From: Conexibacter woesei
Lineage (GTDB): Bacteria; Actinomycetota; Thermoleophilia; Solirubrobacterales; 70-9
DNA length: 26,337 nucleotides
Direction of reading: 5' to 3'
Assembly (NCBI GenBank): GCA_040391885.1
Contig: JBEBXB010000001.1
Coordinates: forward strand, 1 to 26,337
The notes beneath the pieces were generated by a model. That model ran no database searches. It was not told the DNA's origin and was given only the letters and a program-made list of their open reading frames with translations. Shown piece by piece: positions 1,154 to 22,332 of this stretch (position 1 is its first letter; every line of letters begins with the position of its first letter). The position numbers were made by a program, and so were the translations under genes.

Positions 1154-1648
1154 TCAGGCCGGAGCCTGGGCGGTGACGGCCGTGGCGGGCCGCTCCTTGA
1201 TCTCGGCCCCGCGGCCGACGGTGTCGGGGATGCCGTAGTAGGCCAGGACCTGCTGCTCCTGCTCGCGATTGAGCGGCATCGTCGGATCGACGGCAGGCGC
1301 GTTGCGGATCACCTCACGGTCATGCGGCACCCAGACCCGGCCCGCGGCGGCGGCGCACTCACGAACCGAGATCGGCACGACCTTCCCGAACCTTCCCAGC
1401 TTCGCGAGCACCCAGGCGGGATCGCCCGATTCCTGGTCGACGAACAGACCTTCGACGCGGGCGACCGAGTGGCCCGAGATCTCGTCGACCCGGTACCCCT
1501 CCCACGCCTTCACGTCCTCCAGGCTCGGTTGTGGCGGCGGGGCGGCGGTCAGGGCATTGGCGCGAGCGCTGGCCCCCGAGTCCTTCCCTTCGTTGATCCT
1601 CGCCTCAACGGTGTCGTTCTCACCGGGTCCAACCTTGGAATCACTCAT
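1154..1648 (-). CDS. PRC-barrel domain protein
   Basis: The WEGYRV...VEGLFVD..SGDPAWV...GRFG...VP...RVWVP.D...IRNAP...EQ..LAYYG pattern is typical of actinobacterial PRC-barrel proteins. The ATG at 1648 (or GTG at 1651) overlaps the meaB stop and has GGAGAGGG upstream. Confidence 0.8.
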   Translation of the reverse strand: MSDSKVGPGENDTVEARINEGKDSGASARANALTAAPPPQPSLEDVKAWEGYRVDEISGHSVARVEGLFVDQESGDPAWVLAKLGRFGKVVPISVRECAAAAGRVWVPHDREVIRNAPAVDPTMPLNREQEQQVLAYYGIPDTVGRGAEIKERPATAVTAQAPA

Positions 1649-2606
1649 CACCCTCTCCTTCCAGAAGCTCGGCGGCCGCTGACGCCGGATCCAGTTCGCG
1701 GCTCACCACTCGGTCCAACAGCTCGGCCACGCGGGGATCATCCTCGATCGCCGCTTCGAGCCGCCGCCGCAGACGCGCGGTCGCGATGCCCAGCACCTCG
1801 CTGCGGAGGTTACGGGCCCGTCGCTCGGCCAGGGTACCTTCACCTTCGATGAAGGCGCGGTGCTCCGCGATCTTCTCGGCGAGCTCGGCCACGCCCTCTC
1901 CGCGAGCGGCCTCGGTCCGGAGTATCGGCACCCGCCAGCCACCCGGCACGTGGGCAAGCGAAAGAGCCCCGCGCACCTCGCGGACCATGGTGTCGGTCAT
2001 CGGGTGATCCGACTTGTTGACCACGATCACGTCAGGAATCTCCATGACCCCGGCCTTGAGCGCCTGGATCGAGTCGCCGGAGCCGGGCATCAACGCCAGC
2101 ACGATGGTGTCGGCGTGGTCGACGATGTCGATCTCCCCTTGGCCGACACCGACCGTCTCGATCAGGACGTCGTCCTTGCCGGACGCATCCATGACCAGAG
2201 CGGCTTGCAAGGCGGCTTCGGAGAGCCCTCCCAGCGCCCCGCGAGAAGCCATCGAACGGATGAAGACACCGCCGTCGAGGAAGTGCTCGGTCAGGCGTAT
2301 GCGGTCCCCGAGCAGGGCACCCTGCGTGAAGGGGCTGGAGGGATCGATCGCCAGCACCGCGACCTGCCGGTCCTCCTTGCGCAGCTCACCGGACAGCGCG
2401 CCGACGAGGGTGCTCTTGCCGACCCCAGGGGGGCCGGTGAAGCCGACGATCCGGGCCTTGCCGGTCTTCGGGTAGATCTCACGGACCAGATCCCAGCCGG
2501 CAGGATCGTCGTTCTCGATCAATGTGATCGCCCGGGCGAGGGCCCGTTTGTCTCCTGCGAGGAGCCGTTCGGCGAGCGAACTGGTTGTGGCGGGTGCGTC
2601 GTTCAT
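1641..2606 (-). CDS. meaB: Methylmalonyl-CoA mutase-associated GTPase MeaB/ArgK
   Basis: Motifs ALARAITLIEN, Walker A GPPGVGKST, DPSSPFTQGALLGDRIR, ETVGVGQ, GDSIQALKAGVMEI and NKSD. Confidence 0.95.
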   Translation of the reverse strand: MNDAPATTSSLAERLLAGDKRALARAITLIENDDPAGWDLVREIYPKTGKARIVGFTGPPGVGKSTLVGALSGELRKEDRQVAVLAIDPSSPFTQGALLGDRIRLTEHFLDGGVFIRSMASRGALGGLSEAALQAALVMDASGKDDVLIETVGVGQGEIDIVDHADTIVLALMPGSGDSIQALKAGVMEIPDVIVVNKSDHPMTDTMVREVRGALSLAHVPGGWRVPILRTEAARGEGVAELAEKIAEHRAFIEGEGTLAERRARNLRSEVLGIATARLRRRLEAAIEDDPRVAELLDRVVSRELDPASAAAELLEGEGDE

Positions 2607-2616
2607 CGTTCACGCC

Positions 2617-2622
2617 AGTCTA
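2617..2622 (-). promoter_or_regulatory. Candidate -10 box TAGACT for meaB
   Basis: TANNNT hexamer 10 nt upstream of the meaB ATG. No SD is visible. Confidence 0.4.
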
Positions 2623-2712
2623 AGACCTGAACCGGCACCCGAAGCCGGGTGGGCGCCGCCGGCCTTGTCGGCCCCTCCCAATGGCCGGGGCCTCAATAGA
2701 GTTTCCGGCGAA

Positions 2713-3369
2713 TTGTCTCGCTCACTCTCCTTCTTTGCCCGCAACCGGATGCTCCGGCCGAAGTACGCCCGCCTTTTCTGGCGTTACCTCTGGCGGCGCC
2801 TGGCCACGCGCTCGGGTTGGCGGTGGCGGACGGACGGCCCGGTCTTCTTCGGGAGAAAGCTCGCCCTTCAGACGGGGAGCACGGGATCGATCCGGTTCGG
2901 CCGCTGGGTCTGGATCGGCGACGGCACCAAGATCCGGTGCCATGAGGGCACCGTCGAGATCGGCGACAAGACCGTCTTCGGCCAGGAATGCACCATCTCC
3001 TGCTATCAGCGCGTGCGGATCGGCCCGGAGTGCGTGATCGCCGATCGCACCATGTTCATCGACTTCGACCACGGGGTCGTCGACGTCGAGCGCCCGATCC
3101 GGAGCCAGGGGATCTACAAGGAGGATGTGATCGTCGGCGCCAATGTCTGGATCGGCTACGGGGCGGCGATCCTGCGGGGCGTGCGGGTCGGCGACAACGC
3201 CGTGATCGGCACCAACTCGGTGGTCACGCGGGACGTCCCGGCGAACGCCGTGGTCGGTGGAGTGCCCGCCCGGGTCCTGCGGATGCGCGACACCCCGGAG
3301 CGGCTGGCATGGCCTGATCCGGTCGAACCGGAACCGGGCGCGCCCGGCGTCATGCCGATCCCCGAGTAG
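2713..3369 (+). CDS. Hexapeptide-repeat (LbH) acyltransferase, Rv3034c-like
   Basis: GRWVWIGDGTKIRCHEG..EIGDKTVFG, DFDHG...PIRSQGIYK and VWIG..AAILRGVRVGDNAVIG repeats match my recollection of Rv3034c. The start is uncertain (TTG 2713 or ATG 2749). The ORF-track start at 2524 overlaps meaB and was rejected. TAGAGT (TANNNT) lies at 2697-2702. Confidence 0.88.
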   Translation: MSRSLSFFARNRMLRPKYARLFWRYLWRRLATRSGWRWRTDGPVFFGRKLALQTGSTGSIRFGRWVWIGDGTKIRCHEGTVEIGDKTVFGQECTISCYQRVRIGPECVIADRTMFIDFDHGVVDVERPIRSQGIYKEDVIVGANVWIGYGAAILRGVRVGDNAVIGTNSVVTRDVPANAVVGGVPARVLRMRDTPERLAWPDPVEPEPGAPGVMPIPE

Positions 3370-3409
3370 TCCGGAAGCCGAGCGAGCCTGAGGGCGGTCC
3401 GGCGGGCGT

Positions 3410-3892
3410 TCAGGTCCGATCCTCGGCGAGCCGGGCCAGCAGAGCCTCGGCGGCCGCCTCGTTGATCTCGGCGCTCTGGCGATTGAAGCGGGTCAGCAGC
3501 TCGAAATCGTGGGCATCCAGACCGTCGAGGATCTCGGCCGACCTCTCGACCAACGGCGTGTAGTGGATCCGGGCCGCCGAGCGTCCCTCGTCGGTCACCT
3601 CGACCAGGACCCGCCTCCGGTCCCCTGGGTCGGATGCCCGCCGCGCATACCCTTTGGCCTCCAGCCGGTCGATCACCGCGGTCACGGCGCCGCTGGTCAG
3701 GCCGACCGACCGGCCGAGCTCTCCGGCCGGCATGGGGCCTTGGTGATCGAGCACGTCGAAGCAACGTCCGTCGGTGCGATTCAGCCCGAGTGCCCGGCAT
3801 ACGACATCGTCGAATTTCTCGACCGCGATCTGGTAGTCGCGGATCGCCTTGATCAGGTTTGGGAGCAGCTCGTCGCGGGCATCATCACTCAT
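3410..3892 (-). CDS. MarR family transcriptional regulator
   Basis: Motif LGLNRTD..CFDVL...GPM.AGELGR..GLTSGAVTAVIDRLEAKGYARR..DPGDRRRVLV. The start is ATG 3892 or ATG 3934. Confidence 0.93.
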   Translation of the reverse strand: MSDDARDELLPNLIKAIRDYQIAVEKFDDVVCRALGLNRTDGRCFDVLDHQGPMPAGELGRSVGLTSGAVTAVIDRLEAKGYARRASDPGDRRRVLVEVTDEGRSAARIHYTPLVERSAEILDGLDAHDFELLTRFNRQSAEINEAAAEALLARLAEDRT

Positions 3893-3938
3893 CGTCGTTT
3901 CCGATCCCGGCCGTCGCCGGCCGGCACTCGACATGTTC

Positions 3939-3955
3939 TCTTAGTTGCTAAGATA
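3939..3955. promoter_or_regulatory. Putative MarR operator overlapping divergent -10 boxes
   Basis: Perfect inverted repeat TCTTAG-N3-CTAAGA at 3939-3953 in an AT-rich spacer. TAAGAT (+, 3949-3954) and TATCTT (-, 3950-3955) both fit TANNNT. Confidence 0.65.
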
Positions 3956-4012
3956 CTCGATCTTCTAATGAATCTGAAAGCGATGGCGTCATCGGGGCGT
4001 CCGAAGGAATAG

Positions 4013-5026
4013 ATGACTGAGCAGAAAGCGATCGAGGTCCTCGACCTCGCCAAGCAGTACGGGGACGAGATCCAGGCCCTGGACGGGGTTTCCTTCTCGG
4101 TGGAGCCCGGCACCGTGTTCGGCCTGCTCGGGCCCAACGGGGCCGGCAAGTCCACCTGCGTCAAGATCCTCACCACCCTCTCCCACCCGACCTCCGGCAC
4201 CGCCGCCGTGATGGGCTTCGACGTCCTCACCCAGGGAGCCGAGGTGCGCAACCGGATCGGGGTGGTCGCCCAGAGCTCGACCGCCGACCGCGAGGCCACC
4301 GCGCGCGAGAACCTCCGTCTCCAGGGCCAGCTCTACCGCATGAAGGGCAAGGACCTCGAGTCGCGGATCGACGGGCTGCTCACCGACTTCAACCTGGCCG
4401 ATTCCGCGGATCGGATCGTGCGCGGGTTCTCCGGCGGGATGGAACGCCGGCTTACGATCGCCATGGCCCTGGTCCACAGGCCGGAGATCCTCTTCCTCGA
4501 CGAACCGACCACCGGGCTGGACCCCGAGGTACGTGCGGAGATGTGGGAAGAGATCTCCACCCTGGCGTCCCGCGAGGGAATGACCATCCTGCTGACGACG
4601 CACTACCTGGAAGAGGCCGACAACCTCGCCGCCAATCTGGCGATCGTGGATCGCGGCAAGATCGTGGCGGAGGGCTCCCCCGAGGAGCTCAAGCGTGGCC
4701 TCAAGGGCGACGCGATCCATGTCGAGATCGGTGCCGCGGTGACCGAAGAGGCCGTGATTGCGGCCTTGGCCCGGGTCGACGGCGTCGGCGAGGTCATCCT
4801 CAACGAACGCACCCTCCACGCCCGTGCGGCCGACGGGGCCCGTTCGGTGCCTTCGATCCTGCAGACCCTCGACGCGGCGGGGATAACCGCCGATTCGGTG
4901 ACCGTCTCCCGGCCTTCGCTGGATGACGTCTACCTGAAGTACGCCGGACGCACGATGGAGCAGGCCGAGAAGTCGGATGCCGACCAGAAGAAACCCGGCT
5001 CCGACCGTGAGGAGGTGACCGCGTGA
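4013..5026 (+). CDS. ABC transporter ATP-binding subunit, DrrA family
   Basis: Walker A GPNGAGKST, signature FSGGMERRL, Walker B ILFLDEPT and TTHY. SD GAAGGA lies upstream. Confidence 0.95.
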   Translation: MTEQKAIEVLDLAKQYGDEIQALDGVSFSVEPGTVFGLLGPNGAGKSTCVKILTTLSHPTSGTAAVMGFDVLTQGAEVRNRIGVVAQSSTADREATARENLRLQGQLYRMKGKDLESRIDGLLTDFNLADSADRIVRGFSGGMERRLTIAMALVHRPEILFLDEPTTGLDPEVRAEMWEEISTLASREGMTILLTTHYLEEADNLAANLAIVDRGKIVAEGSPEELKRGLKGDAIHVEIGAAVTEEAVIAALARVDGVGEVILNERTLHARAADGARSVPSILQTLDAAGITADSVTVSRPSLDDVYLKYAGRTMEQAEKSDADQKKPGSDREEVTA

Positions 5027-5802
5027 ACGCCATGCTCGATACCTGGCACATGGCTCAGCGCCACATCCGGGCCCTGCTCCGGCAGCCCTGGTGGATCGTC
5101 GTCACGCTGATCCAGCCGATCATCTGGCTGGTCCTCTTCGGTGGTCTTTTCGAGACGATGGAGAACACGCCCGGCTGGCCCGAGGGGGTCAGCTTCCTTG
5201 AGTTCATCACTCCCGGGGTGATCGTGATGACCGCGTTCTTCTCGGCCGGCTGGGGCGGCATGAGCATGATCGAGGACCTCAACCGGGGGATCATCGACCG
5301 CTTCCTGGTCTCCCCCGCCAAACGCTCCTCGATCATCATGGGAGCGCTGCTGCAGAGCGCCCTCAGCGTCTCGATCCAGTCGGTGATCGTGCTCGTCCTG
5401 GCCCTGATCATGGGTGCGAGCTACCCGAACGGGATCGGCGGGCTGATCCTCCTGATCCTGATCGCGGCACTGGTCGGATTCGGATTCGGCGCCTTCTCCA
5501 ACGGCTTGGCCCTGATCATCCGCAAGGAGGAGAGCCTGATCGCGATGATGCAGTTCCTGCTGCTGCCGCTGACCTTCATGGCCGCGGCCTTCATCCCGCT
5601 CGATCTCGCACCCGACTGGATCGGCTCGGTCGCGAAGTTCAATCCCGTGAACTGGGGGATCGAAGCCGGCCGTTCGGCGGCGATGGACCCCTCGCCCGAC
5701 TGGGGACTGATCACCAGCCGGGTCGGGCTGCTGATCGTCTTCGGTGCCCTGATGGCCACCTTCGCCACCCGCGCCTTTCGTTCGTACCAGCGAACGGTCT
5801 GA
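5023..5802 (+). CDS. ABC-2 type permease, DrrB family
   Basis: Several hydrophobic helices, plus LIQPIIWLVLFG, EDLNRGIIDRFLVSP and FNPVNW. The GTG start overlaps the ATPase stop (GTGA). Confidence 0.93.
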   Translation: MNAMLDTWHMAQRHIRALLRQPWWIVVTLIQPIIWLVLFGGLFETMENTPGWPEGVSFLEFITPGVIVMTAFFSAGWGGMSMIEDLNRGIIDRFLVSPAKRSSIIMGALLQSALSVSIQSVIVLVLALIMGASYPNGIGGLILLILIAALVGFGFGAFSNGLALIIRKEESLIAMMQFLLLPLTFMAAAFIPLDLAPDWIGSVAKFNPVNWGIEAGRSAAMDPSPDWGLITSRVGLLIVFGALMATFATRAFRSYQRTV

Positions 5803-5817
5803 TTCCCGAGGTGGCCC

Positions 5818-5845
5818 GGATTCACCGCTCCGGCGCGGTGGATCC
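5818..5845. terminator. Hairpin between convergent genes, probable terminator
   Basis: GGATTCACCGC-TCCGGC-GCGGTGGATCC forms an 11-bp stem with one T-G pair. A weaker AGCCC...GGGCT stem follows at 5846-5867. There is no U-tract. Confidence 0.55.
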
Positions 5846-5890
5846 AGCCCGCCTCGGGGGTTGGGCTTGGGGAAGGTTCAGGGAACTGCG

Positions 5891-5938
5891 GCTGTGGCCC
5901 GGGCTGTGGCCCGGGCTGTGGCCCGAGCTGTGGCCCGC
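5891..5938. repeat. 12-bp tandem repeat x4, GCTGTGGCCCG(G/G/A/C)
   Basis: Read directly, with copies starting at 5891, 5903, 5915 and 5927. Confidence 0.97.
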
Positions 5939-5955
5939 TTTGACATGGCCGCAGC

Positions 5956-7155
5956 TCAGAGAGCCGCGTCGGCCGGCTGCTTGCCGACTTCCCGGTACAG
6001 CGCGAGCGTCCGGCCGGCGACGTCGTCCCAGTCGAAGCGGCGGATGTGGTCCAGGCCCTCCTGGACCATGCGACGGCTCAGATCCTCGTCGGAGAGGACC
6101 TGGATCGCGGCTTCCGCCAGGTGCTCCGGATCCTTGGCCCGGAATCGCAGTCCGGCGCCCTCCAGCGGCACGACCTCCCGCAGGCCGCCGGTGTCGGCGG
6201 CGATGCATGGGCACTCGGAGGCCATCGCCTCGAGGGCGACCAGGCCGAAGGGCTCATAGATCGAAGGGACCACCGTCAGGTCGGCGATCCGGTAGAGCGA
6301 GTGGAGGACGTCGTCCCCGATCCAGCCGAGGAAGGTGCCGTGGCTCATCAGCCCCAGCTCTTCGGCCTGCTTGTGGAGCTCGGCCTCGTGGGTGCCGGAG
6401 CCGGCCACCAGGAAGCGGGTGTTCGGCATCGCCTCGATCACGGCGGGCATCGCCTCGAGCGCGAGCTGGAAGCCCTTCTCGTATACGAGGCGGCCGATCA
6501 GGAGGACGAGGTTCTCCTCCGGTGAGGCGAACTCGGAACGCAGCCGGGCCAGCTCGGCCGGGTCGTCGGCGGGAAGGTCGTCCGGATCGATCCCGTTGGG
6601 GATCACCGTGATCCGGCCCTCTTCGACGGCGAAGATGTCGGCCACCTGCTCACGCATGAAGTCGGAGCAGGTGATCACCCGGTCGGAGCGGTTGGCGATC
6701 CACTTCTCGACCCCGTGGATGTGCGACTGGGGGTGCTTGTCGACCCATCCCTGGTGGCGGCCGAACTCGGTTGCGTGGATCGTCGTGACCAGGGGGCAGC
6801 CGTAGCGGCGGGCCAGGTGGTCGCAGGCGCCGGCGACGAGCCAGTCGTGCCCGTGGACGAGATCGAAGTCGTAGCGGTCGCCGAGCTCCACGCCGGCGGC
6901 GAGCATGTCGGAGTTCATCCGCTCGACCCAGGTGACGAACTCGGCCAGGTCGGTCGGCCGCTCCGGCTCGACGATGCGGTGGATCTGGACCCCGGCCATC
7001 GTCTCTTCGACGGTCGCCTGCTCCCCACCGCGGGTGAGCACGTGGACTTCGACCCCGAGACGGATCAGCGCCTCCGAAAGCTTGCGGACGTGACGGGCGA
7101 GCCCACCCTCGATCAGCGGCGGGTACTCCCAGGTGACGATCAGTACGCGATTCAA
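5956..7155 (-). CDS. GT4 glycosyltransferase, Rv3032-like alpha-1,4-glucosyltransferase
   Basis: Motifs WEYPP...GGLARHV, HGHDWLV, TIHATE.GRHQGW, GRLVYEKG and PSIYEPFGLVALEA. The TTG start is uncertain. Confidence 0.93.
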   Translation of the reverse strand: MNRVLIVTWEYPPLIEGGLARHVRKLSEALIRLGVEVHVLTRGGEQATVEETMAGVQIHRIVEPERPTDLAEFVTWVERMNSDMLAAGVELGDRYDFDLVHGHDWLVAGACDHLARRYGCPLVTTIHATEFGRHQGWVDKHPQSHIHGVEKWIANRSDRVITCSDFMREQVADIFAVEEGRITVIPNGIDPDDLPADDPAELARLRSEFASPEENLVLLIGRLVYEKGFQLALEAMPAVIEAMPNTRFLVAGSGTHEAELHKQAEELGLMSHGTFLGWIGDDVLHSLYRIADLTVVPSIYEPFGLVALEAMASECPCIAADTGGLREVVPLEGAGLRFRAKDPEHLAEAAIQVLSDEDLSRRMVQEGLDHIRRFDWDDVAGRTLALYREVGKQPADAAL

Positions 7156-7224
7156 ATTGGTTCCGGGAGTTCGGGCGTCAGGGCCGTTGGGCGAGATTGG
7201 GTGGCGGATGAGGACTGGGCGGTG

Positions 7225-8670
7225 TCAGGGAACCAACATCGGGGCGAGGCTCAGATCCGGGGCGAGCGCACGTACCCGTGTATCCACCTGTACACCGACA
7301 TCGGATTGTAGGGCCTCGAAAGCGCTCCTGGTGTGCAGCAGCACACGCTCGAAGGGATAATCCCCCGCTTGGCGGCGCCCGTCGAGGAAAGCCCAATCGC
7401 TGGACTGGACCATCATCAACTCCCTTGCGGCCCGTTCGGCCGCATCCCGCGGGATGCCCCGGTTGATCGCCTCGGTGACTCTCAGCTCCAGGCGCCGCGT
7501 CCCCCAAGCCAGGTCCGAGACAGCCGGGGAGTCCCAGGTCCGGAAGTCCTTCTCCTCTCCCCAGGTCGAGGCGGGCAGGGGTACCGCGCGAACGGAGCCA
7601 TCGCCTTCTGAGCCGTCCTTCCCGGTCCGCTCGGCGGCCGCCTGGTCCAGGGTCACGAGCCGGATCCCGGCCGCTTCCGCCCCGGCAAGCACCTGCTCCA
7701 ACCAGATCGGCCCCTCGGCCCACCAGTGCCCGAGGAGCTCGCAGTCGAAGGCGAAGGTCATCAATCCCCGGTCGCCGGTGCGTGCCCGGTAGCCGTCGAG
7801 ACGCTCGGCCGCCGCCGTCAGGAACTCCTCGGCCTGCCCGGCCGCCCGTTCGCGGGCCGCTTCGGCGTCGTAGGGCTCGCCGTCGATGCGAAAGATGTGG
7901 ACCCCGTTCATGGAGAGCCGGTGGAAGTCCCGGTAGCCAGGCCAGGACGGATACCCCTTCATGTCCCAGAGCCACGAGATAGCGGTCCAGTCGATGGTGA
8001 AGGCCAACGGCCCGGCCGGGGTCCGCACCGGCGCCAGGCAGTCGTCGCCGCTCCCTTGCCGACTCTGGTCGACGCAGAACCACTCGACCCCATTTCGCCC
8101 GAGCGCTCCGTCCAGACCGGGTCTCCAGGCGCATTCCGGCAGCCAGAATCCGCCGGTCCACCCAAAGCGGCGTTCGTGGGACGCGGTTCCGGTCGTGATC
8201 TGCAGGTCGATCCCGGCCCGGGTGGCGAGCAGCGGCAGGATCGCGTGGGTGGCGCTCGATGCGGCCATCGCGACCCGGCCGGAGCGGCCAGCCTCGCGGA
8301 AGGCGGAGAGAGGATCGCAGTCGGCCGCATCGAGCAGCTCCAACGCCCGGGCGTACCGAGCCACTTCGGTCTCGGCCGCGACCCGAAAGCGTGGCTCGGC
8401 GGTCTCGACATCCCGTTCCGCGGCCCGCAGCCGATGATCGACCAGGAACTCACGCAACCGCTCCGCCACGCCGGGGGCCTCCATCTGGTCTGCCAGCACC
8501 GGGGTGACGGTGAAGGTCACGTCCTCGGCAATATCCAGCACCGGCAGATAGGACCGCACCACGGCGTCGAACAGCCACTCCTCGCCGAACGGGTAGGTGC
8601 CGTGCCCCTCGACGTAGGGCATGTGGGAGTGGAGGACGATCGCTAGATCGCCCACCCCCCGGTCAGGCAT
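7225..8670 (-). CDS. GH57 family 1,4-alpha-glucan branching enzyme (DUF1957), Rv3031-like
   Basis: Motifs VLHSHMPYV, GEEWLF, WLPEC (catalytic Glu), YRDFH, FDCELLGHWW.EG (catalytic Asp) and SSDWAF. The ATG overlaps the upstream stop (ATGCCTGA). Confidence 0.92.
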   Translation of the reverse strand: MPDRGVGDLAIVLHSHMPYVEGHGTYPFGEEWLFDAVVRSYLPVLDIAEDVTFTVTPVLADQMEAPGVAERLREFLVDHRLRAAERDVETAEPRFRVAAETEVARYARALELLDAADCDPLSAFREAGRSGRVAMAASSATHAILPLLATRAGIDLQITTGTASHERRFGWTGGFWLPECAWRPGLDGALGRNGVEWFCVDQSRQGSGDDCLAPVRTPAGPLAFTIDWTAISWLWDMKGYPSWPGYRDFHRLSMNGVHIFRIDGEPYDAEAARERAAGQAEEFLTAAAERLDGYRARTGDRGLMTFAFDCELLGHWWAEGPIWLEQVLAGAEAAGIRLVTLDQAAAERTGKDGSEGDGSVRAVPLPASTWGEEKDFRTWDSPAVSDLAWGTRRLELRVTEAINRGIPRDAAERAARELMMVQSSDWAFLDGRRQAGDYPFERVLLHTRSAFEALQSDVGVQVDTRVRALAPDLSLAPMLVP

Positions 8671-9415
8671 GGCAGACGGCGATGAAGTCCAGGGCGTCCT
8701 CGAGGTCGTGGGTGCTGAGCCGGAAGTCGGAGGCCGCGATCGCCGGCGTGAACCGGTCGTAGAAGGCTTTGCTCAGCCCGAGCGTCTCGTGAACCCGGTC
8801 CCAGCCGAGCGAGAGCGCCAGCTCGTGCCACTTCAGTTTGCGGGCATGCGACAGGCCGAGGATCTCGACCCGGGAGAAATGAGGCTCCAGCATCGCCCGG
8901 TACTCCTCGAGGCGATACTCCTTGATGTGCCAGGGGTTGTCCGACTTCTCGGCCCCTTCGGGCGCCAGGGTCAACAGGTTCGGCGTCGAGATGTAGGAGA
9001 CGGGTGCGATCCGCGCAAAGCCGGCGACCAGCGAGTCGGGGTCCTGGATGTGCTCGATCGTCTGCAGGAAGACGACGGCGTCGCGGGGCTCGTCGAAGCT
9101 CTCGACCAGCTCTCGCCGGAAGGTGAGGTTGTCCGTCGTGTACTTCGCCTCGGCGTGCGCGAAGGCGTCGGGGTTCGCGTCGACCCCGATCACCTCGGCC
9201 GCGGTCCGGGCGAGGACGGCCGAGCCGTACCCTTCGCCGCAGGCGAGATCGACCACCTTCTGGCCGGCCACCAGGTCGGAGATCCACTCGTAGACCACCA
9301 GGTGGCGGCGGTACCAGTAGTTCTCCTCGGGTACGTCGGGGAGGGTCCGCTCGCCGGTCAGTTCGAGCGGCGGGACCCCATCGGGCTGGTTGTTCTGGAT
9401 GTACGAGTCGGTCAA
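8663..9415 (-). CDS. Class I SAM-dependent methyltransferase, Rv3030-like
   Basis: Motifs LTGERTLPD..EENYWYRRH.VVY, DLACGEGYG, QTIEH, STPN and NPWH.KE. The start is TTG 9415 (preferred) or ATG 9448. Confidence 0.92.
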   Translation of the reverse strand: MTDSYIQNNQPDGVPPLELTGERTLPDVPEENYWYRRHLVVYEWISDLVAGQKVVDLACGEGYGSAVLARTAAEVIGVDANPDAFAHAEAKYTTDNLTFRRELVESFDEPRDAVVFLQTIEHIQDPDSLVAGFARIAPVSYISTPNLLTLAPEGAEKSDNPWHIKEYRLEEYRAMLEPHFSRVEILGLSHARKLKWHELALSLGWDRVHETLGLSKAFYDRFTPAIAASDFRLSTHDLEDALDFIAVCHA

Positions 9416-9432
9416 GAACCGCGATTCTTCCC

Positions 9433-9438
9433 TATCTT
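9433..9438 (+). promoter_or_regulatory. Candidate -10 box TATCTT (possible leaderless transcript)
   Basis: TANNNT 8 nt upstream of ATG 9447. No SD sequence is visible. Confidence 0.35.
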
Positions 9439-9446
9439 TGAGCGTC

Positions 9447-10367
9447 ATGCCCGCTTCCCCGACGGCGACGCCGCAACACATCAAAGACGTGAACACCCGC
9501 TACCACGACGCGGCGGCCGAATCCTACGATGCCAAGTGGGGCATCGATTTCAGCGATATCGGCCAGCATCAGACGGCTCTCAAGCTGAAGAAGGCCCTCG
9601 GCGGCAAGCTGCCCGAGCCCTTCGAGGATGCCCTCGAGATCGGCGCCGGGACCGGCTACTTCTCACTCAACCTCGCCACCCAGGGCCTGATCGAGAACCT
9701 GACCGCGACGGACATCTCGCCCGGGATGCTCAAGTCCCTGGCCGCCACGGCGGACCGCCTCGGGGTTCCGGTCAAGACGGTGGTCACCGAGGCCGAGGTC
9801 CTGCCCTTCGAGGACGACTCCTTCGACGTCGTGCTCGGCCACGCCATCCTTCACCACATCCCGGATCTAGACAAGGCCTTCTCCGAGTTCTTCCGGGTTC
9901 TGAAGCCCGGCGGCGTGATCGTCTTCTGCGGTGAGCCGTCGCGCTACGGCGACCGGCTGGCGGTCGTGCCGAAGAAGACCGGCACCTTCGTCTCGCCGGT
10001 CTGGCGCCGCCTGGTCGGGGCCGAGACCCTCACCCACACCGAGGAGGAGCTGGCCGACGACGAGCACAGCCTCGAGCCCGAGGTCGACGTCCACGCCTTC
10101 GCTCCCGCCGATCTCCGCGCGATCCCGCCGCGGGCCGGCTTCGAGGACACCAAGGTCAACGGCGAGGAGCTGGTCGCCAACGTCTGGGGCTGGGGCATGC
10201 GCTCGATGGAGTCCACCGCCACCCCGGACTCGATCCCGCACCGCTGGCGCAACTTCGCCTTCCGCAGCTACATCGCCTTCCAGAAGGTCGACAACAACGT
10301 GCTCGAACCCCACCTCCCGGCCGAGCTCTTCTACAACCTGCTCCTCTCGGCCCGCAAGCCGAAGTAG
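9447..10367 (+). CDS. Class I SAM-dependent methyltransferase, Rv3038c-like
   Basis: Motifs YHD.AA..YD.KW.I, LEIGAGTG, DISPGM, GHAILHHIPD, VLKPGG...F.GEP, E..VDVHAF and FYN. Start at ATG 9447; the ORF-track start at 9390 overlaps the divergent gene. Confidence 0.92.
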   Translation: MPASPTATPQHIKDVNTRYHDAAAESYDAKWGIDFSDIGQHQTALKLKKALGGKLPEPFEDALEIGAGTGYFSLNLATQGLIENLTATDISPGMLKSLAATADRLGVPVKTVVTEAEVLPFEDDSFDVVLGHAILHHIPDLDKAFSEFFRVLKPGGVIVFCGEPSRYGDRLAVVPKKTGTFVSPVWRRLVGAETLTHTEEELADDEHSLEPEVDVHAFAPADLRAIPPRAGFEDTKVNGEELVANVWGWGMRSMESTATPDSIPHRWRNFAFRSYIAFQKVDNNVLEPHLPAELFYNLLLSARKPK

Positions 10368-10385
10368 ACCGACCCGGAGCCAGCG

Positions 10386-11528
10386 TCAGTCCGAATGCCG
10401 GCGGACCCTGAAGAGCCTCACCGGCCGCTTCAGGCCCTTGAACTTGTGCTCCCCCACCTTCGAGTAGCGGAAGGCGTCGCCGGCCGCTTCGACGGCGGTC
10501 GCTTCGGCGAGCACCGAGTCCGGGCGGGCGGCTTCGGTGATCCGGCTGGCGAGGTTGACGGGGTTGCCGAACCAGTCGCCTACCTGGGGTGTGGCAAGGC
10601 CACGGGCGACGCCGACCCTGAGCGCCGGTAGTTCGGACCCGGCGTCGCGTCCGGCATCCCGACCCACCTCGATGAACCTGAGGGCGGCGTCGAACAGCGC
10701 AGCCCCGTCCTCGGAGACGAGCATCGCCGCGTCACCGATCAGCTTGACCAGCCGCACCTCGGGGTTCGTCACTTCGATCGCCACCGATTCGAGCAGCTTC
10801 GCGACGGTGCCGATCTGCTCCAGCTCGGAGCGTTCCCCGAGCCGGGTGAAGCCGACGAGGTCCGCGAAGCAGACGGAGACCTCGACCGCGCCACCCGAAC
10901 CGAACCAGCCGGGGGTGTCCATCGCCATGACCTGGCTTCGGAGCTGGTCGACGAAGTGCGATCGCAGAGCGTACGTGACCGCTTCCTCACCCATGGGCAG
11001 AAGCTCCCGGGCCGCTTCCCGGAGCTGCATCGCCGCTTCCCATTCGTCGGCATCGGGGTCGACGATGTCGGTCGATACGAGATCCCGGTGGACCTGGGCG
11101 ATGCGGGCGGCACTGGAGCCGACCACCCGGGTCACGGCCAGCATGTTGTCGAGGGGCAGCCCGGCATCCATGAACTTGCGCAGCCGCTTGGCCGCCCGGA
11201 CGTCCTGCCGCCCGAGGATACGGTCGTCGGCCGCGGGTGGCGGGAATCCCAGGGCTGCGATCAGCTTCTGAAGCTCGTTGACGGTTATCCCAGCCTGTTC
11301 CGCCACTTCGATTGGGGTGAACCGGTGGCCGGGCCGGCCGATCGCGAGGTCGGCCGGCAGCAACGCGAGCCGGTTGGCCTTGGCTTCGCGGCGCAGGGTC
11401 TCGAGGTCCACCCCTTCTTCCGCCCACAGGAACTCGAGCAGGCGCAAGCGGACCTCGCGGGCCTCACCGGTGAGGCCGTCGAGGAGGCCTTCGTACTCGA
11501 AATCGGGGATTCCGGCCGGTTCAGGCAT
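10386..11528 (-). CDS. Class III adenylyl cyclase with N-terminal regulatory domain, Rv1264-like
   Basis: Catalytic motifs FADLVGFT, VKLIGDA (Lys) and GDWFGNPVNLASRI (Asp, Asn, Arg) indicate ATP specificity. The N-terminal GLLDGL.G.ARE.R.RLLE.L segment resembles the Rv1264 regulatory domain. The ATG overlaps the ggt stop (ATGCCTGA). Confidence 0.9.
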   Translation of the reverse strand: MPEPAGIPDFEYEGLLDGLTGEAREVRLRLLEFLWAEEGVDLETLRREAKANRLALLPADLAIGRPGHRFTPIEVAEQAGITVNELQKLIAALGFPPPAADDRILGRQDVRAAKRLRKFMDAGLPLDNMLAVTRVVGSSAARIAQVHRDLVSTDIVDPDADEWEAAMQLREAARELLPMGEEAVTYALRSHFVDQLRSQVMAMDTPGWFGSGGAVEVSVCFADLVGFTRLGERSELEQIGTVAKLLESVAIEVTNPEVRLVKLIGDAAMLVSEDGAALFDAALRFIEVGRDAGRDAGSELPALRVGVARGLATPQVGDWFGNPVNLASRITEAARPDSVLAEATAVEAAGDAFRYSKVGEHKFKGLKRPVRLFRVRRHSD

Positions 11529-13038
11529 ATGCGACCGCCCCACCCCGCCGCGGGTCGCCGCCGCCGTCGAGTCGTCCCGTGGCGGGATCCCGGGTGACCA
11601 CCTGGACGCCCCCGAAGAACAGGTTGCGTTCGTCCCACCGGAAGATCTCCTGCCCCAACCCTTCGATCTCCGCGAGGCCCTGCGGGTCGACGCCCGGTTC
11701 GGCTTGGAGCACCCCGGCTTCGAGGTGGACCCTTGCCGCCTCGACCGCCTCCTGCGGCCCCATCCCGCGCGTCAGCAGGTTCAGGGTCGTCTGCAGGATG
11801 GCCGACCGGATCCGGTTCGAGCCGGCACTGCCCAGCCCGGCCCGCACCTCGTCGCCTTCCATGATCAGGGTCGGAGACATCATCGAGCTGATCCTCGAGC
11901 CGGGCGTCGAACGGTGGAAGCCGAGCGGGTTGAGATCCTCTTCACCAAGCATGTTGTTCAGATGGACACCGGTTCCGGGCACCACCATCCCCGATCCCGT
12001 CCCGTTCGAGCAGGTGACGGACGCGCACAGGCCGTCGCCGTCCATCGCGGCAAGATGGGTGGTCGATCCGAGCCGATCGGCGATCTCCAGCCCCTGCCGG
12101 AACCGTTCTTCCCGCAGGAACTCGGCCGCGAAGTCCTCCTGGTCGAGCTTCTCGGCGAAACCGGTTCGGCGGGCCTGGCTCGCCGCTTCCATCACCCGGG
12201 CGATCTCGACCGTTCCCGACCTCCCCATCCGTTCGAGGAGCGCCAGGCAGTAGGTGATGAGGATGCCGCCCGCCGAAGGTGGTGGGTTCGTATGGATCCT
12301 GTGGTTGCCGAACGGGGTCGTGACCGGTTCGCGGACGATCGGCTCGTAGGCTTCCAAGTCCTTCCCGGACAGGGTCCCGCCCCGTCCGAGGATGTACTCC
12401 TCGATGGCGGCGGCTGTCTCTCCGGCGTAGATCGACCGGGGGCCTTCGGCGCCGTATCGGTCGAGCGCGTCGCCGAGGTCGGGATCGCGGAACACATCGC
12501 CCTCTTTGAGGATCCGCCCCTCCGGCGCGTAGATCGCCCGGGCTTCGGGGGTGGCCGTGTAGATCGGTTCGAGGATCCTCAACACGTAGGCCTGCTGGCG
12601 GTTCAAGGGGGCCCCTTCGCGGGCGAGCCGGGCGGCTGGGGCGGTCAGCTCCGCCATCGGGACCGATCCGAACCGGTCCAGTGCCAGGGCGAGCCCCGCG
12701 GCGGTGCCGGGAACCCCGCAGGAGGCCGCGCCGGCATTGAACACCTGGGTCGTGGCGGCATCGAAGTGGACCGGCACCGGCACCAGCTCGTCCGCCAGCT
12801 CGTGACCGCCGCGGCCTGGGGCGGCCACGAAGAAGTCGATCAGCACCGGTTTCACCCCGGCCCCACCGATGATCATGAACCCCCCGGCCCCGAGACCCGT
12901 CAGGGCACTCTCCAGCGAGAACGACGCGAGCACGGCCGCGGTGGCGGCATCGACCGCATTTCCTCCGTCTCGCAGGATCTGCGCCCCGGCCTCGGCCGAC
13001 AGCGGATGCCCCGCGGCGACCACACCGCGCGAGGCCAT
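11521..13038 (-). CDS. ggt: Gamma-glutamyltransferase family Ntn-hydrolase, cytoplasmic
   Basis: Motifs GVVAAGHP...AG..ILR.GGNAVDAA, GLGAGGF, nucleophile STTH, LNNMLGE, SSMMSPT and GGDPRRGG. There is no signal peptide. Confidence 0.88.
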   Translation of the reverse strand: MASRGVVAAGHPLSAEAGAQILRDGGNAVDAATAAVLASFSLESALTGLGAGGFMIIGGAGVKPVLIDFFVAAPGRGGHELADELVPVPVHFDAATTQVFNAGAASCGVPGTAAGLALALDRFGSVPMAELTAPAARLAREGAPLNRQQAYVLRILEPIYTATPEARAIYAPEGRILKEGDVFRDPDLGDALDRYGAEGPRSIYAGETAAAIEEYILGRGGTLSGKDLEAYEPIVREPVTTPFGNHRIHTNPPPSAGGILITYCLALLERMGRSGTVEIARVMEAASQARRTGFAEKLDQEDFAAEFLREERFRQGLEIADRLGSTTHLAAMDGDGLCASVTCSNGTGSGMVVPGTGVHLNNMLGEEDLNPLGFHRSTPGSRISSMMSPTLIMEGDEVRAGLGSAGSNRIRSAILQTTLNLLTRGMGPQEAVEAARVHLEAGVLQAEPGVDPQGLAEIEGLGQEIFRWDERNLFFGGVQVVTRDPATGRLDGGGDPRRGGAVAYA

Positions 13039-13041
13039 TCG

Positions 13042-14655
13042 TCAGGAAAGGAATTCGGGTATATCGCCGCCGCTGACCGCGGGCAGAGATCCACCCCGGT
13101 CACGGACCGATCCCCTTGCGCGGGAATCTCCGCGGTCGAGCGGTTCGCGTCTGGTGTCCCGGCCGGAACCGCCCCGGTCACGCTGATCCTCGCTGGACCG
13201 TCGCCGGGTCGGTGACTTGTTGTCGAACCGGGTCGCGACCACGGTGATCCACACCTGGTCGTCGAGGTCTTCGTCGATGTTCGCGCCGAAGATGATGTTG
13301 GCATCGGGATGAGCGGCTTCGCCGACTGCGCGGGCCGCTTCCGAGACCTCGATCAACGAGAGGTCGGATCCACCGGTGACGGAGAGCAGGATCGACCGGG
13401 CGCCGTCCATCGGGGTCTCCAGGAGAGGCGAGGAGATCGCCTTCTCCGCGGCGATCATGGCGCGGTCGGGACCGCTGCCCATGCCGATCCCGAGCAGGGC
13501 GCGGCCGGCGTCGGACATGATCGACCGGACGTCGGCGAAGTCGAGGTTGATCACCGACGGCAGGGTGACGAGGTCGGAGATGCCCTGGACGCCCTGGCGG
13601 AGGACGTCATCGGCGACCTGGAAGGCGTCGACCATCGGGGTCGACTGGTCGAGCACTTCGAGAAGACGGTCGTTCGGGATCACGATCAGGGTGTCGACTT
13701 CGCCGGCGAGGGCCTCGATGCCCTGCTCGGCCTGCTTGGCCCGGCGGCTGCCTTCGAAGGTGAACGGCTTGGTCACGATCCCGACGGTCAGGGCACCGAG
13801 GTCCCGGGCCAGACGCGCGATCACGGGGGCGGCACCGGTTCCGGTCCCGCCACCGGCACCGGCCGCGATGAAGACCATGTCGGAGCCCTTGAGCAGCCTC
13901 TTGATGCGGTCCTGCTCGTCGAATGCGGCGCGGAACCCGAGCGAAGGGTCGGCTCCGGCGCCGAGGCCCCGCGTCTCGTCCCCACCGATGTGGACGGTGA
14001 GATCGGAGACGCAGAGCTGAAGCGACTGAAGGTCGGTGTTGACGGCCATGAACTCGACGCCCGGGATCTGAGCTTCGATCATGCGGTTGATCGCGTTGAC
14101 GCCACCTCCGCCGACTCCGACCACGCGGATGATCGGGGTATGTGGCACACCGGCGCCCTGGTTGGCCGACGGTTCCTGGCGCCCGTAACGGGGCGCGTCG
14201 TCGGTCGGGGCCGGAGAGTCGGAGAAGATTCGACGGAGCCGGTCCTGGGGATCCGGCAGCCCGCTGGTGTCGGCCGCGGGGTCGGGGGCGGACAGCGGTC
14301 CGTGATCCGGTTCCTCGCGTCGCGGCTCGGGCTCGGCCGCCCGGCGGGTCTCCCCCACATCGGAGCCACCACGGGCCTCGACGGGATCCTGACGACCGAA
14401 ACGGCCGGCGGAAGCGGGGTCGGGACCTCGCTCTTCCTCACGGGCATCGTCGCCCGAAGCAGCTTCGGGGGCGGGATCTACATCGCGTGCGACGGCCTCG
14501 GCATCACGTTCCACCGGATCGCCCTGCGGTCCGGATCGGTCATCCTCGCGGCGGGGTTCGAATTCGGGCGGCTCCTGAGAAGGGTCGTCGGAGGTAGAGC
14601 GAAACAGGTCCGCCAGGGGACCTTCACGCATACTCGCTCGTTTACGACGAGCCAT
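13042..14655 (-). CDS. ftsZ: Cell division protein FtsZ with a ~170-aa N-terminal extension
   Basis: Motifs IRVVGVGGGGVNAINRM, NTDLQSL, tubulin signature GGGTGTG, PFTFEG..R, T7 loop INLDFADV and C-terminal DIPEFLS. The start (ATG 14655 or GTG 14658) has a perfect SD AAGGAGGT. Confidence 0.95.
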   Translation of the reverse strand: MARRKRASMREGPLADLFRSTSDDPSQEPPEFEPRREDDRSGPQGDPVERDAEAVARDVDPAPEAASGDDAREEERGPDPASAGRFGRQDPVEARGGSDVGETRRAAEPEPRREEPDHGPLSAPDPAADTSGLPDPQDRLRRIFSDSPAPTDDAPRYGRQEPSANQGAGVPHTPIIRVVGVGGGGVNAINRMIEAQIPGVEFMAVNTDLQSLQLCVSDLTVHIGGDETRGLGAGADPSLGFRAAFDEQDRIKRLLKGSDMVFIAAGAGGGTGTGAAPVIARLARDLGALTVGIVTKPFTFEGSRRAKQAEQGIEALAGEVDTLIVIPNDRLLEVLDQSTPMVDAFQVADDVLRQGVQGISDLVTLPSVINLDFADVRSIMSDAGRALLGIGMGSGPDRAMIAAEKAISSPLLETPMDGARSILLSVTGGSDLSLIEVSEAARAVGEAAHPDANIIFGANIDEDLDDQVWITVVATRFDNKSPTRRRSSEDQRDRGGSGRDTRREPLDRGDSRARGSVRDRGGSLPAVSGGDIPEFLS

Positions 14656-15778
14656 CACTCAAGACCTCCTTCGCCAGATTCCGGTAGTACGACGCCGCAC
14701 GACTGTCGGGATCGTACTTCAGGACACTAGCGCCCCGTACCGGCGCTTCGGCGAACTTTACGGCCTTGCGGATGCGGGACTTGAATACCAGGTCCCCGAA
14801 ATTCTCTTCCAGAATCGAAACGGCTTCCCGGGCATGGAGGGTCCGGCCGTCGAACATGGTCGGCAAGATGCCCTCGATCCGGACGTTCGGGTTGAGGTTC
14901 TCCTGGATCATCTTCAAAGTGTTCTGGAGCTGGACCAATCCACGCATAGAAAGGTACTCGCACTGGACCGGGACGATCACCTTGCTCGAAGCGGTGAGGG
15001 CGTTGATGGTCAGCAAGCCGAGGCTCGGCGGGGTGTCGATGCAGATGTAGTCGTAGTCGCCGTGGACCTCGCGAAGCGCCTTCTCCAAGGATCGTTCACG
15101 GCCGATCTTGGTGCTCATCGCGATCTCGGCCCCGGCCAGGTCGATCGAGGCGACGGCGATGTCGATCTCGCGGTGGGCGATCACTTCGGAGATCGGCAGA
15201 TCGTCCACCAGCACGTCGTACATGCTGTGTTCGACCTTGTCGGGGTCGATTCCCTGACTCATCGTGAGGTTGCCCTGCGGGTCGAGATCGATGCAGAGAA
15301 CCCGGTTGCCGAGCTCGGAAAGGGCGACCGCCAGGTTCAGGGTCGAGGTCGTCTTGGCGACGCCGCCCTTCTGGTTGGCGAAGCTGATCACCTCGGCCAT
15401 GTCGACCGGGGTCGGGTCCGGCTCCGGGGTCGGCAGAAGGAAGTCACGGCGGTCGGGGGCGAGCAGGTCGGCGGCCTTGAGGCGGATCTCCGACTCCTCG
15501 GCGGCAGCTTCCTCTTCCACCTGAGCCAGCTCCTCCTCGACCGGGGCGCCGGCGGGCGGCGCGACCGAAGCAGCCGCGGCGGCATCGCCGGCGGATTCGT
15601 TCGCGGGGGCATCGGCCGCCGGGGCCTGATTCGGCTCGGCAGCGGGTGTTGACATCGTCGAAGCAGGCTCCGGAGCGGCCGTCACCGGGACGGCGGCAGG
15701 CTCAGCCGTCGGAGTTTCCTCCGCCGATTCGGGAGCGTGCGTGTCACGTGCGTGGTTCTTGCGGCTCAGGATTCGCAT
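14642..15778 (-). CDS. Orphan ParA/Soj family ATPase with an Ala/Pro/Glu-rich N-terminal extension
   Basis: Deviant Walker A KGGVAKT, DLDPQGNLT, IDTPPSLG, VQCEY and TMFDGRT. The core domain starts at about residue 127 (15400). The start is uncertain (15778, 15655 or 15400). Confidence 0.92.
   Translation of the reverse strand: MRILSRKNHARDTHAPESAEETPTAEPAAVPVTAAPEPASTMSTPAAEPNQAPAADAPANESAGDAAAAASVAPPAGAPVEEELAQVEEEAAAEESEIRLKAADLLAPDRRDFLLPTPEPDPTPVDMAEVISFANQKGGVAKTTSTLNLAVALSELGNRVLCIDLDPQGNLTMSQGIDPDKVEHSMYDVLVDDLPISEVIAHREIDIAVASIDLAGAEIAMSTKIGRERSLEKALREVHGDYDYICIDTPPSLGLLTINALTASSKVIVPVQCEYLSMRGLVQLQNTLKMIQENLNPNVRIEGILPTMFDGRTLHAREAVSILEENFGDLVFKSRIRKAVKFAEAPVRGASVLKYDPDSRAASYYRNLAKEVLSDGSS
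14664..14671 (-). promoter_or_regulatory. Shine-Dalgarno AAGGAGGT for ftsZ, embedded in the parA 3' end
   Basis: Perfect SD 8 nt before ATG 14655 and 5 nt before GTG 14658. It supports translation of the full N-terminal extension. Confidence 0.85.
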
Positions 15779-16765: not shown

Positions 16766-17952
16766 TGACCTCGATCGAAGATGTGATCGGCGATCGCCAG
16801 ATCGTGATCTGCGCCGGCTCCGGCGGGGTCGGCAAGACGACCACTTCGGCGGCGATCGCGCTCGGCATGGCCGCCCGGGGCTTGAAGGTGTGTGTCTTGA
16901 CGATCGACCCGGCGAAGCGGCTGGCCGACTCGCTCGGCCTCGAAGAGCTCGGCAACGAGGCGTCCCGGGTCGATCCCGCGCTGCTCCGTGAACATGGGGT
17001 CGAGACGAGTGACGGCGGCGAGCTCTGGGCGATGATGCTCGACGCCAAGGAGACCTTCGACGCGCTGATCGCCCGACATGCCGAGGATGCCGCCGCCCGG
17101 GACCGGGTGCTCGGCAACCGCATCTACCAGGAGATCTCGGGCGCCCTTGCCGGCTCCCAGGAGTACATGGCGATGGAGAAGCTCTTCGAGCTGCATTCCG
17201 ACGGTCGGTTCGACCTGCTGGTGCTCGACACCCCGCCGAGCCGCAACGCGCTGGACTTCCTCGACGCGCCGCGGCGGCTGACCCAGTTCATCGAGGGGCG
17301 CTCCCTCCAGATCTTCCTCCGGCCGACCGGGCTGGCGGCGCGGGTCGCGGGCCGGGGTGCCAGCGTGGTCCTGTCGGTGCTGAAGCGGATCCTCGGATTC
17401 GACCTGCTGGCGGATCTCTCCGAGTTCTTCACCGCCTTCAGCGGCATGATCGACGGCTTCCGTGACCGTGCCCAGCGCGTCAACACCCTGCTCAGCGACC
17501 AGCGGACCTGTTTCGTCGTCGTCTGCGGGCCCCAGGGTCAGCCGATCGACGAGGCCGTCTTCTTCCATTCGAAGCTGGTCGAGAACGAGATGAACTTCGC
17601 CGGGGTGGTCGTCAACCGGGTCCGGTACCGGTTCGGGACCCGGTCACCGCGGTTGCGGGACCTGACCGCCCGGCTCGAAGGCGAACTGGGTGATGAAGCG
17701 TCACCGGAACTGGCCGAGGCGGCTGCCCGCAACCTGGTCGAGTACGAGGCCCTGGCTCAGCGCGACGCCCGCAACATCGCCCGGCTCACCGAGAGCCTCG
17801 GAGGCGAACCGATGATCCGGGTCCCGTATCTCGACACCGATGTCCACGACATCGCCGGCCTGGCCGAGATCGATCGTTACCTGTTCGCCGACGAGGAGAC
17901 CAGGATCGATCTGGCTACCGGGTCCGGCGATGGCGGTAGTTCAGCTCGCTGA
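16765..17952 (+). CDS. ArsA/GET3-like ATPase, Rv3680-like subunit
   Basis: Motifs GSGGVGKTT, TIDPAKRLA.SLG, QEYMAMEKL and DTPPSRNALDFLDAP. The start overlaps the upstream stop (TGATG). Confidence 0.92.
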   Translation: MTSIEDVIGDRQIVICAGSGGVGKTTTSAAIALGMAARGLKVCVLTIDPAKRLADSLGLEELGNEASRVDPALLREHGVETSDGGELWAMMLDAKETFDALIARHAEDAAARDRVLGNRIYQEISGALAGSQEYMAMEKLFELHSDGRFDLLVLDTPPSRNALDFLDAPRRLTQFIEGRSLQIFLRPTGLAARVAGRGASVVLSVLKRILGFDLLADLSEFFTAFSGMIDGFRDRAQRVNTLLSDQRTCFVVVCGPQGQPIDEAVFFHSKLVENEMNFAGVVVNRVRYRFGTRSPRLRDLTARLEGELGDEASPELAEAAARNLVEYEALAQRDARNIARLTESLGGEPMIRVPYLDTDVHDIAGLAEIDRYLFADEETRIDLATGSGDGGSSAR

Positions 17953-22318: not shown

Positions 22319-22332
22319 TACGGAGTTCACGC

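Follow-up and report, generated by a model that had tools for sequence, protein, structure and literature searches.

The biosynthetic locus for the 6-O-methylglucose lipopolysaccharide (MGLP) of mycobacteria, Rv3030-Rv3037c, encodes the glucosyltransferase Rv3032, the acetyltransferase Rv3034c, the methyltransferases Rv3030 and Rv3037c, and the branching-type protein Rv3031 (PMC2674218). MGLP is treated as a trait of mycobacteria and of Nocardia and a few close relatives; together with the mannose-based polysaccharide MMP it is proposed to buffer long-chain acyl-CoA and to regulate the type I fatty acid synthase, FAS-I (PMC9883506, PMC4555173). Here we describe a stretch of 26,337 nucleotides from an uncultured soil actinobacterium assigned to Conexibacter woesei, of the order Solirubrobacterales (class Thermoleophilia). 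This stretch, hereafter the window, is contig C1 of an assembly (G000) of 2.12 Mb in 282 contigs that is 71.6% complete. It carries genes for two class I S-adenosylmethionine (SAM) methyltransferases (MT1 and MT2), a GH57 branching-enzyme-like protein, a retaining GT4 glucosyltransferase and a hexapeptide-repeat (LbH) acyltransferase. Judging from their sequences, these five genes rather likely constitute a reduced but orthologous form of the MGLP locus of mycobacteria.

The window shares with the mycobacterial locus (Rv3030-Rv3037c and Rv3038c; PMC2674218, PMC4555173) the gene order methyltransferase, GH57, GT4. Both contain an LbH gene and a methyltransferase at the Rv3038c position that are counterparts of each other, the GT4s are monophyletic, and invariant motifs are shared in MT1 and in MT2. 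The window differs from the mycobacterial locus in that the LbH and MT2 genes flank the operon, the PQQ_2 and DUF3298 neighbours and the Rv3037c-like gene are missing, and a MarR/ABC-2 insertion is present. Our reference mycobacteria were G139, a Mycolicibacterium-like genome whose named relatives reach at most 88% identity, and G243 (Mycobacterium lacus). The G139 locus runs from an electron transfer flavoprotein gene (minus strand) through methyltransferase, GH57 and GT4 genes (plus) to LbH (minus), PQQ_2 (plus), DUF3298 (minus), a THUMP-like methyltransferase (minus) and a further methyltransferase (minus), in agreement with the published content of Rv3030-Rv3037c (PMC2674218). The Rv numbers used here are positional assignments in rapid-growing mycobacteria, made from the published cluster description and the known gene order. 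On the H37Rv map, we take fixA to be Rv3029c and the further methyltransferase to be Rv3038c. The mycobacterial MMP cluster follows the same logic as the window, with a glycosyltransferase, methyltransferases and a hydrolase leading to an intracellular polymethylated polysaccharide, but it builds on mannose and uses different enzyme families (ManT, MeT1, MeT3 and MmpH) (PMC9883506).

The sequence-only reading of the window had matched each of the five proteins to an Rv counterpart from family-specific motifs. Reciprocal searches bear this out: MT1, GH57, GT4, LbH and MT2 are the reciprocal best matches of the G139 genes at the Rv3030, Rv3031, Rv3032, Rv3034c and Rv3038c positions, respectively, and their forward best matches also fall in the M. 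lacus locus. When the G139 proteins were searched against G000, MT1 was recovered with 120 bits (runner-up 41), GT4 with 213 bits versus 78, MT2 with 185 versus 53, LbH with 131 versus 94, and GH57 with 175 bits and no runner-up. In the forward direction, MT1 has only one match in G139, which lies inside the cluster; GT4 scores 219 bits versus 119 and MT2 187 versus 43, and LbH has one match each in G139 and G243, both within the MGLP neighbourhood. A single GH57 is found in each of G000, G139, G288, G344 and G334, always at the cluster; in G243 it is accompanied by a second, marginal match (21 bits). In a maximum-likelihood tree, the window GT4 falls into a clade of 12 cluster-linked GT4s from mycobacteria and other families (support 98/99), so it groups, as the sequence-only reading had held, with the Rv3032-position enzymes. 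The clade leaves out 12 paralogues, which include the GlgM-like gene adjoining gpgS in mycobacteria as well as MshA-like and PimB-like proteins. That the five genes are orthologues of those in the MGLP locus is well supported. None of the five proteins exceeds any NCBIfam cut-off, and because the mycobacterial counterparts are also under the cut-offs, NCBIfam cannot decide membership. For example, the window GH57 scores 211.7 and 209.4 bits against the equivalog models NF041133 and NF041566, whose cut-offs are 1000 and 920, and the mycobacterial cluster GH57 likewise stays below them at 255-265 bits.

The window GH57 belongs to the same fold family as the characterised GH57 branching enzymes (1UFA/3P0B from Thermus thermophilus, 3N8T from Thermococcus kodakarensis, and 5WU7) and has in common with them the BE_C domain, the nucleophile Glu and the acid/base Asp. 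In an alignment with the T. thermophilus branching enzyme 1UFA, E179 (WLPECA) and D309 (FDCELLGHWW) coincide with E184 and D353, which we take to be the catalytic nucleophile and acid-base residue; the catalytic pair is thus intact, as first read. The window protein is about 40-80 residues shorter than these branching enzymes, and its gene is coupled translationally to a methyltransferase gene, not to glycogen genes. Its nearest homologues carry labels of Solirubrobacterales or Thermoleophilia metagenome-assembled genomes. In a GH57 tree of 50 rows every family is monophyletic, and the Solirubrobacterales form a clade with support 100/100. This topology fits vertical descent within the lineages, with the history left unrooted.

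Among 46 MT1 homologues, mycobacterial ones included, 26 columns are invariant, including the motifs TGERTxP, YW..RH, GEG, Q..EH and TPN. An AlphaFold model of MT1 (pLDDT 93.4) adopts the Rossmann fold of class I methyltransferases, but no closely related structure has been solved. Its only structural matches are generic class I methyltransferases, with TM scores of up to 0.58 and identities of up to 19%, and neither substrate nor regiospecificity can therefore be read from the fold. A sequence search of the PDB returned no informative relative for MT1 (best match 25.7 bits) or for MT2. MT2, which is divergent from MT1, has 55 invariant columns across ten homologues, two of them mycobacterial.

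The module is widely distributed. A search for MT1 across 401 Actinomycetota genomes, a tally that includes the unpublished genome G088 (none of our other results depends on it), recovered a homologue in 121. All 31 sampled Solirubrobacterales genomes (six families, 18 genera) have the gene, and all 16 sampled genomes from other Thermoleophilia orders are without it. The ancient origin that the sequence-only reading had proposed fits the family-congruent GH57 tree but is not proven by it. In the ten other Solirubrobacterales loci that we examined, the layout consists of a MeaB gene, the LbH gene reading towards an oppositely oriented GT4-GH57-MT1 run, and the MT2 gene reading away from that run. 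The exceptions are three genomes of family f2, whose cluster is without GT4, and G103, whose locus is reduced to MT1 and MT2. Outside the order we considered 46 loci from about 20 families, several of them cut off by contig ends. In 41 of these, GH57 and the MT1 homologue are direct neighbours, and within 10 kb GT4 is found in 31, LbH in 29 and MT2 in 24. All five genes occur within 20 kb in 18 of the 46 loci and also in G139, where MT2 was masked by an overlong neighbouring query. In these other families LbH and MT2 mostly form an adjacent pair. The grouping is far beyond chance: it recurs at every Solirubrobacterales locus that we examined and across many further families of the Actinomycetota.

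The position of the LbH gene in the window needs a qualification. It had been described as flanking the methyltransferase-GH57-GT4 run; it does lie nearby on the opposite strand, 2.6 kb from the GT4 end, but the two are separated by genes for a MarR regulator and for the ATPase and permease of an ABC-2 transporter. In most other Solirubrobacterales loci examined LbH adjoins GT4 or GH57, and in G377 and G262 it sits directly beside GT4. Among the related loci examined, the MarR/ABC-2 block occurs only in the window and in the congener G344; it is absent from the congener G288 and from G377 and G262. The block is an insertion into a conserved module. We considered the MarR and ABC-2 genes as a part of the system and rejected them as such, since they are missing from close relatives.

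On its other side, the LbH gene has a MeaB-type GTPase gene as its divergent neighbour. This neighbour is conserved in two Solirubrobacterales families; MeaB is near or adjoining LbH in G288, G344, G377, G262, G275, G045 and G145, and no MeaB gene appeared around the module in G311 or in the eight other-family loci examined. The mutases that MeaB partners make succinyl- or isobutyryl-CoA, and both acyl groups occur on MGLP. A functional link through succinyl or isobutyryl donors is speculation; the adjacency is restricted to Solirubrobacterales and may be a coincidence. In a further genome of the same family (locus L146, G236:C10, 9013-12097), MT2 and GH57 each match across two separate frames, and the longer MT1 match holds two TAG codons. 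This module may be decaying, or the interruptions may be assembly errors.

A possible primer pathway is found elsewhere in the genome. As in the known glucosylglycerate pathway (GT81 GpgS, Rv1208; MpgS/GpgS, 3F1Y), G000 encodes a GT81 enzyme, which may be specific for glucose or for mannose, together with a HAD-like phosphatase; the genes are on a separate contig (C108), unlinked to the module. The gpgS gene scores 273.5 bits against the cut-off of 262 of NF010496, and a gpgS above this cut-off is present in all six genomes of the genus that were searched. The best solved matches of its product are the dual-specificity MpgS/GpgS of Rubrobacter xylanophilus (3F1Y) and then mycobacterial GpgS. 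A gene for a HAD-IIB phosphatase of the Cof type starts 12 nt after gpgS, an arrangement kept in the congener G401, and its product is weakly similar to the characterised MpgP/GpgP models. Divergent from gpgS is a folP-like (Pterin_bind) gene; with the HAD-IIB gene, the locus (L197) covers positions 271-2940 of C108. In M. tuberculosis, folP2 (presumably Rv1207) adjoins gpgS (Rv1208). Non-mycobacterial GpgPs are HAD-like (PMC3240985), and from its sequence the HAD-IIB phosphatase could replace the mycobacterial GpgP.

The likeliest product of the module would be an intracellular methylated and acetylated alpha-glucan, possibly primed by glucosylglycerate and devoid of the octanoyl group. In this scheme, GT4 would lengthen a short alpha-(1->4)-glucan and GH57 would introduce an alpha-(1->6) linkage or branch point close to the reducing end. 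MT1 is predicted to O-methylate glucose units, at position 6 by analogy to mycobacterial genetics, and MT2 would either add a second type of methyl group or share the task of MT1. LbH would add acetyl or a different short acyl residue to the chain by an ester bond, and the gene pair of gpgS and the HAD-IIB phosphatase on C108 may supply glucosylglycerate as the primer. No hydrophobic or predicted membrane segment was found in any of the five proteins, which indirectly supports an intracellular product. The proposal of the sequence-only reading that this organism makes an MGLP-like methylated and acylated glucan is supported by the orthology, by the GT4 clade and by the presence of gpgS elsewhere in the genome. 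An MGLP-type polymer is probably produced well outside the mycobacteria, even in bacteria without FAS-I.

Several observations weigh against this interpretation. The identity to the mycobacterial proteins is 30-37%, and the assembly in which we looked for further genes is just 71.6% complete. GH57 scores 202 bits against the branching enzyme 5WU7 and 173-187 bits against the mycobacterial GH57s, values that come from different programs. Because the best solved match of GpgS is a dual-specificity enzyme, the primer could be mannosylglycerate, or the gpgS pair may make a compatible solute alone. Four genes had been noted as missing from the window: gpgS turned up above its equivalog cut-off on C108, as described, but mycobacterial-type gpgP, octT and an Rv3037c-like gene did not. 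The histidine-phosphatase GpgP (Rv2419c type), searched for with a G139 protein verified against PDB 4PZ9, gave no match in G000 or in two genomes of the same genus; in two other genomes of the family the query returned weak, generic histidine-phosphatase matches only. OctT (Rv2418c type; the query was the adjacent SGNH gene of G139) was not found in G000 or in five family genomes that are 97-100% complete, and neither was an Rv3037c-like THUMP-like methyltransferase in G000 or in five family genomes that are 91-100% complete. The latter query does match other mycobacterial loci, and the window has the Rv3038c-type methyltransferase in place of the Rv3037c type. Given that neither OctT nor an Rv3037c-like gene turned up, we do not expect the product to carry an octanoyl group, and the terminal methylation may differ. 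We found no literature report of a methylglucose polymer from Solirubrobacterales and no paper that ties Rv3038c to MGLP. To our knowledge, the roles of the counterparts Rv3031, Rv3034c and Rv3038c are unproven even in mycobacteria.

The hosts also differ from mycobacterial MGLP producers in their metabolism: they are without OctT, without the FAS-I marker and without the classical glycogen genes, and they have a HAD-IIB phosphatase instead of the histidine-phosphatase GpgP. Of the 31 Solirubrobacterales genomes, 30 lack PF08354, the marker domain of FAS-I, which was detected in C. glutamicum as a positive control. The only strong match, G210:C60:28637-29635 (321 bits), may be an acquired FAS-I or a polyketide-synthase-like gene. 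The hosts are thus without the marker of the enzyme that MGLP is proposed to serve, and one could assume that the module yields a short glucoside or oligosaccharide bearing methyl and acyl groups, such as a decorated solute of the glucosylglycerate type, and not a fatty-acyl-binding polymer of MGLP size. Pairing gpgS with a phosphatase gene is a classical route to compatible solutes (PMC3240985), and three sister-family genomes (G045, G145 and G311) retain MT1, GH57 and MT2, two of them also LbH, in a cluster without GT4. However, the window and its closest relatives retain the chain-extending GT4 of the Rv3032 clade in the operon, and alpha-glucan chains are the substrates of GH57 enzymes. 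We therefore regard a short decorated glucoside as unlikely.

A second alternative is that GT4 and GH57 are a plain glycogen synthase and branching enzyme, with unrelated substrates for the methyltransferases and the acetyltransferase. The six genus genomes (G000 and G401-G405) gave no match for a GH13 domain, for GlgB, for the N-domain of GlgE or for a glycogen phosphorylase, and their GlgC matches stay under the cut-off; the genus would thus seem to be without classical glycogen and trehalose-to-glucan metabolism. These absences can be read in two ways. With neither a GH13 GlgB nor a GlgE in the genus, the module could be the sole alpha-glucan machinery of the cell; the intact catalytic residues of GH57, its similarity to characterised branching enzymes, which equals that to the mycobacterial copy, and the weak matches of GT4 to glycogen-synthase models would be in line with this. 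On the other hand, no phosphorylase and no GH13 enzyme of the debranching or amylase type was found in these genomes that could mobilise a store, which together with the sub-cut-off GlgC places GT4 and GH57 outside the ordinary glycogen cycle. In addition, the stop of MT1 overlaps the start of GH57, the two genes are adjacent in the 41 other-family loci and in nearly all Solirubrobacterales loci examined, and GT4 groups with the GT4s of MGLP loci and not with GlgM-like glucan enzymes. Plain glycogen is therefore quite improbable. That the gene products modify a polysaccharide destined for export or for the cell surface by O-acetylation and O-methylation, as in lipopolysaccharide and exopolysaccharide pathways, is hardly credible: the best NCBIfam matches of LbH are polysaccharide O-acetyltransferases of the WbbJ and WcaF types and an ABC-2 transporter lies between LbH and GT4, but these matches are all far under the cut-offs, the transporter belongs to the insertion seen only in the window and one congener, the five enzymes have no membrane segment, the conserved module contains no flippase, polymerase or lipid-carrier glycosyltransferase, and the orthology points to a locus for an intracellular polymer. 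All three alternatives are less well supported than an MGLP-type polymer.

The features of the module and its immediate neighbours are given in Table 1. An open reading frame (ORF) listing and Pfam place all five genes, with their expected domains, at or near the positions first reported. MT1, GH57 and GT4 form a minus-strand run in which the MT1 stop and the GH57 ATG overlap by 8 nt (8663-8670) and GH57 and GT4 are spaced by 69 nt. The candidate starts are GTG 9496, ATG 9448 and TTG 9415 for MT1, TTG 9390 and ATG 9447 for MT2, and GTG 2524 and TTG 2713 for LbH. Alignments with other-family homologues begin no earlier than roughly the starts chosen in the sequence-only reading (TTG 9415, ATG 9447 and TTG 2713, respectively), and TTG 2713 is the likely start of LbH. 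The candidate ATGs of the divergent MT1 and MT2 genes share a single CATG at window positions 9446-9449. With the ATG or longer starts there is no intergenic region between the two genes, so that each promoter would sit inside the opposite gene; with TTG 9415 as the MT1 start, the gap is 31 nt. A scan for promoters and terminators in window positions 2400-10600 returned nothing above chance.

Table 1. Genes of the module and adjoining genes in the window; alternative starts are separated by slashes.
Feature	Position	Strand	Domain evidence and counterpart
MeaB-type GTPase	1641-2606	-	Pfam MeaB, 287 bits; divergent neighbour of the LbH gene
LbH (hexapeptide-repeat) acyltransferase	2524/2713-3369	+	Pfam Hexapep; counterpart of Rv3034c position
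MarR regulator	3410-3934	-	Pfam
ABC-2 transporter ATPase and permease	4013-5802	+	Pfam
GT4 retaining glucosyltransferase	5956-7155	-	Pfam Glycos_transf_1 and Glyco_transf_4; counterpart of the Rv3032-position alpha-1,4-glucosyltransferase
GH57 branching-enzyme-like protein	7225-8670	-	Pfam Glyco_hydro_57 and BE_C; counterpart of Rv3031 position
MT1 class I SAM methyltransferase	8663-9415/9448/9496	-	Pfam Methyltransf_11; counterpart of Rv3030 position (putative 6-O-methyltransferase)
MT2 class I SAM methyltransferase	9390/9447-10367	+	Pfam Methyltransf_11, 90 bits; counterpart of Rv3038c position

Beside MT2, a tight minus-strand run at window positions 10386-15778 encodes a ParA-like ATPase, an FtsZ with a long N-terminal extension, a gamma-glutamyltranspeptidase and an Rv1264-like adenylate cyclase. 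A homologue of the adenylate cyclase adjoins MT2 in four of the related Solirubrobacterales loci examined. Further along, the minus strand contains an ORF of 732 aa without a Pfam match (17915-20113). Two tandem ORFs of about 795 aa (19928-24501) combine DUF5122 beta-propeller repeats with RTX calcium-binding repeats and overlap by about 200 nt as read from their first start codons.

Among the top-ranked papers of a literature search, none pairs MGLP with Thermoleophilia, Solirubrobacter, Acidimicrobiia or Rubrobacter, and we found none that describes the cluster outside the Mycobacteriales. If the polymer is made, the minimal set of MT1, GH57, GT4, LbH and MT2 would represent the likely core of the pathway, as against the mycobacterial additions OctT, Rv3037c and the mycobacterial GpgP, and Rv3038c would become a candidate for an unassigned MGLP methyltransferase. 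The ancestral function of the polymer would then be other than the control of FAS-I, and it could be tested in simpler, non-pathogenic organisms. More tentatively, and with rather less confidence than in the orthology itself, we suggest that the Solirubrobacterales module may make the only alpha-glucan of the cell, non-octanoylated, methylated and acetylated, and that this would be an old Actinomycetota trait which predates mycobacterial lipid metabolism and whose primary role would not be FAS-I regulation. If this were the case, then the Rv3038c-type methyltransferase, which travels with LbH across the phylum, would be a true MGLP methyltransferase, besides or instead of Rv3037c.

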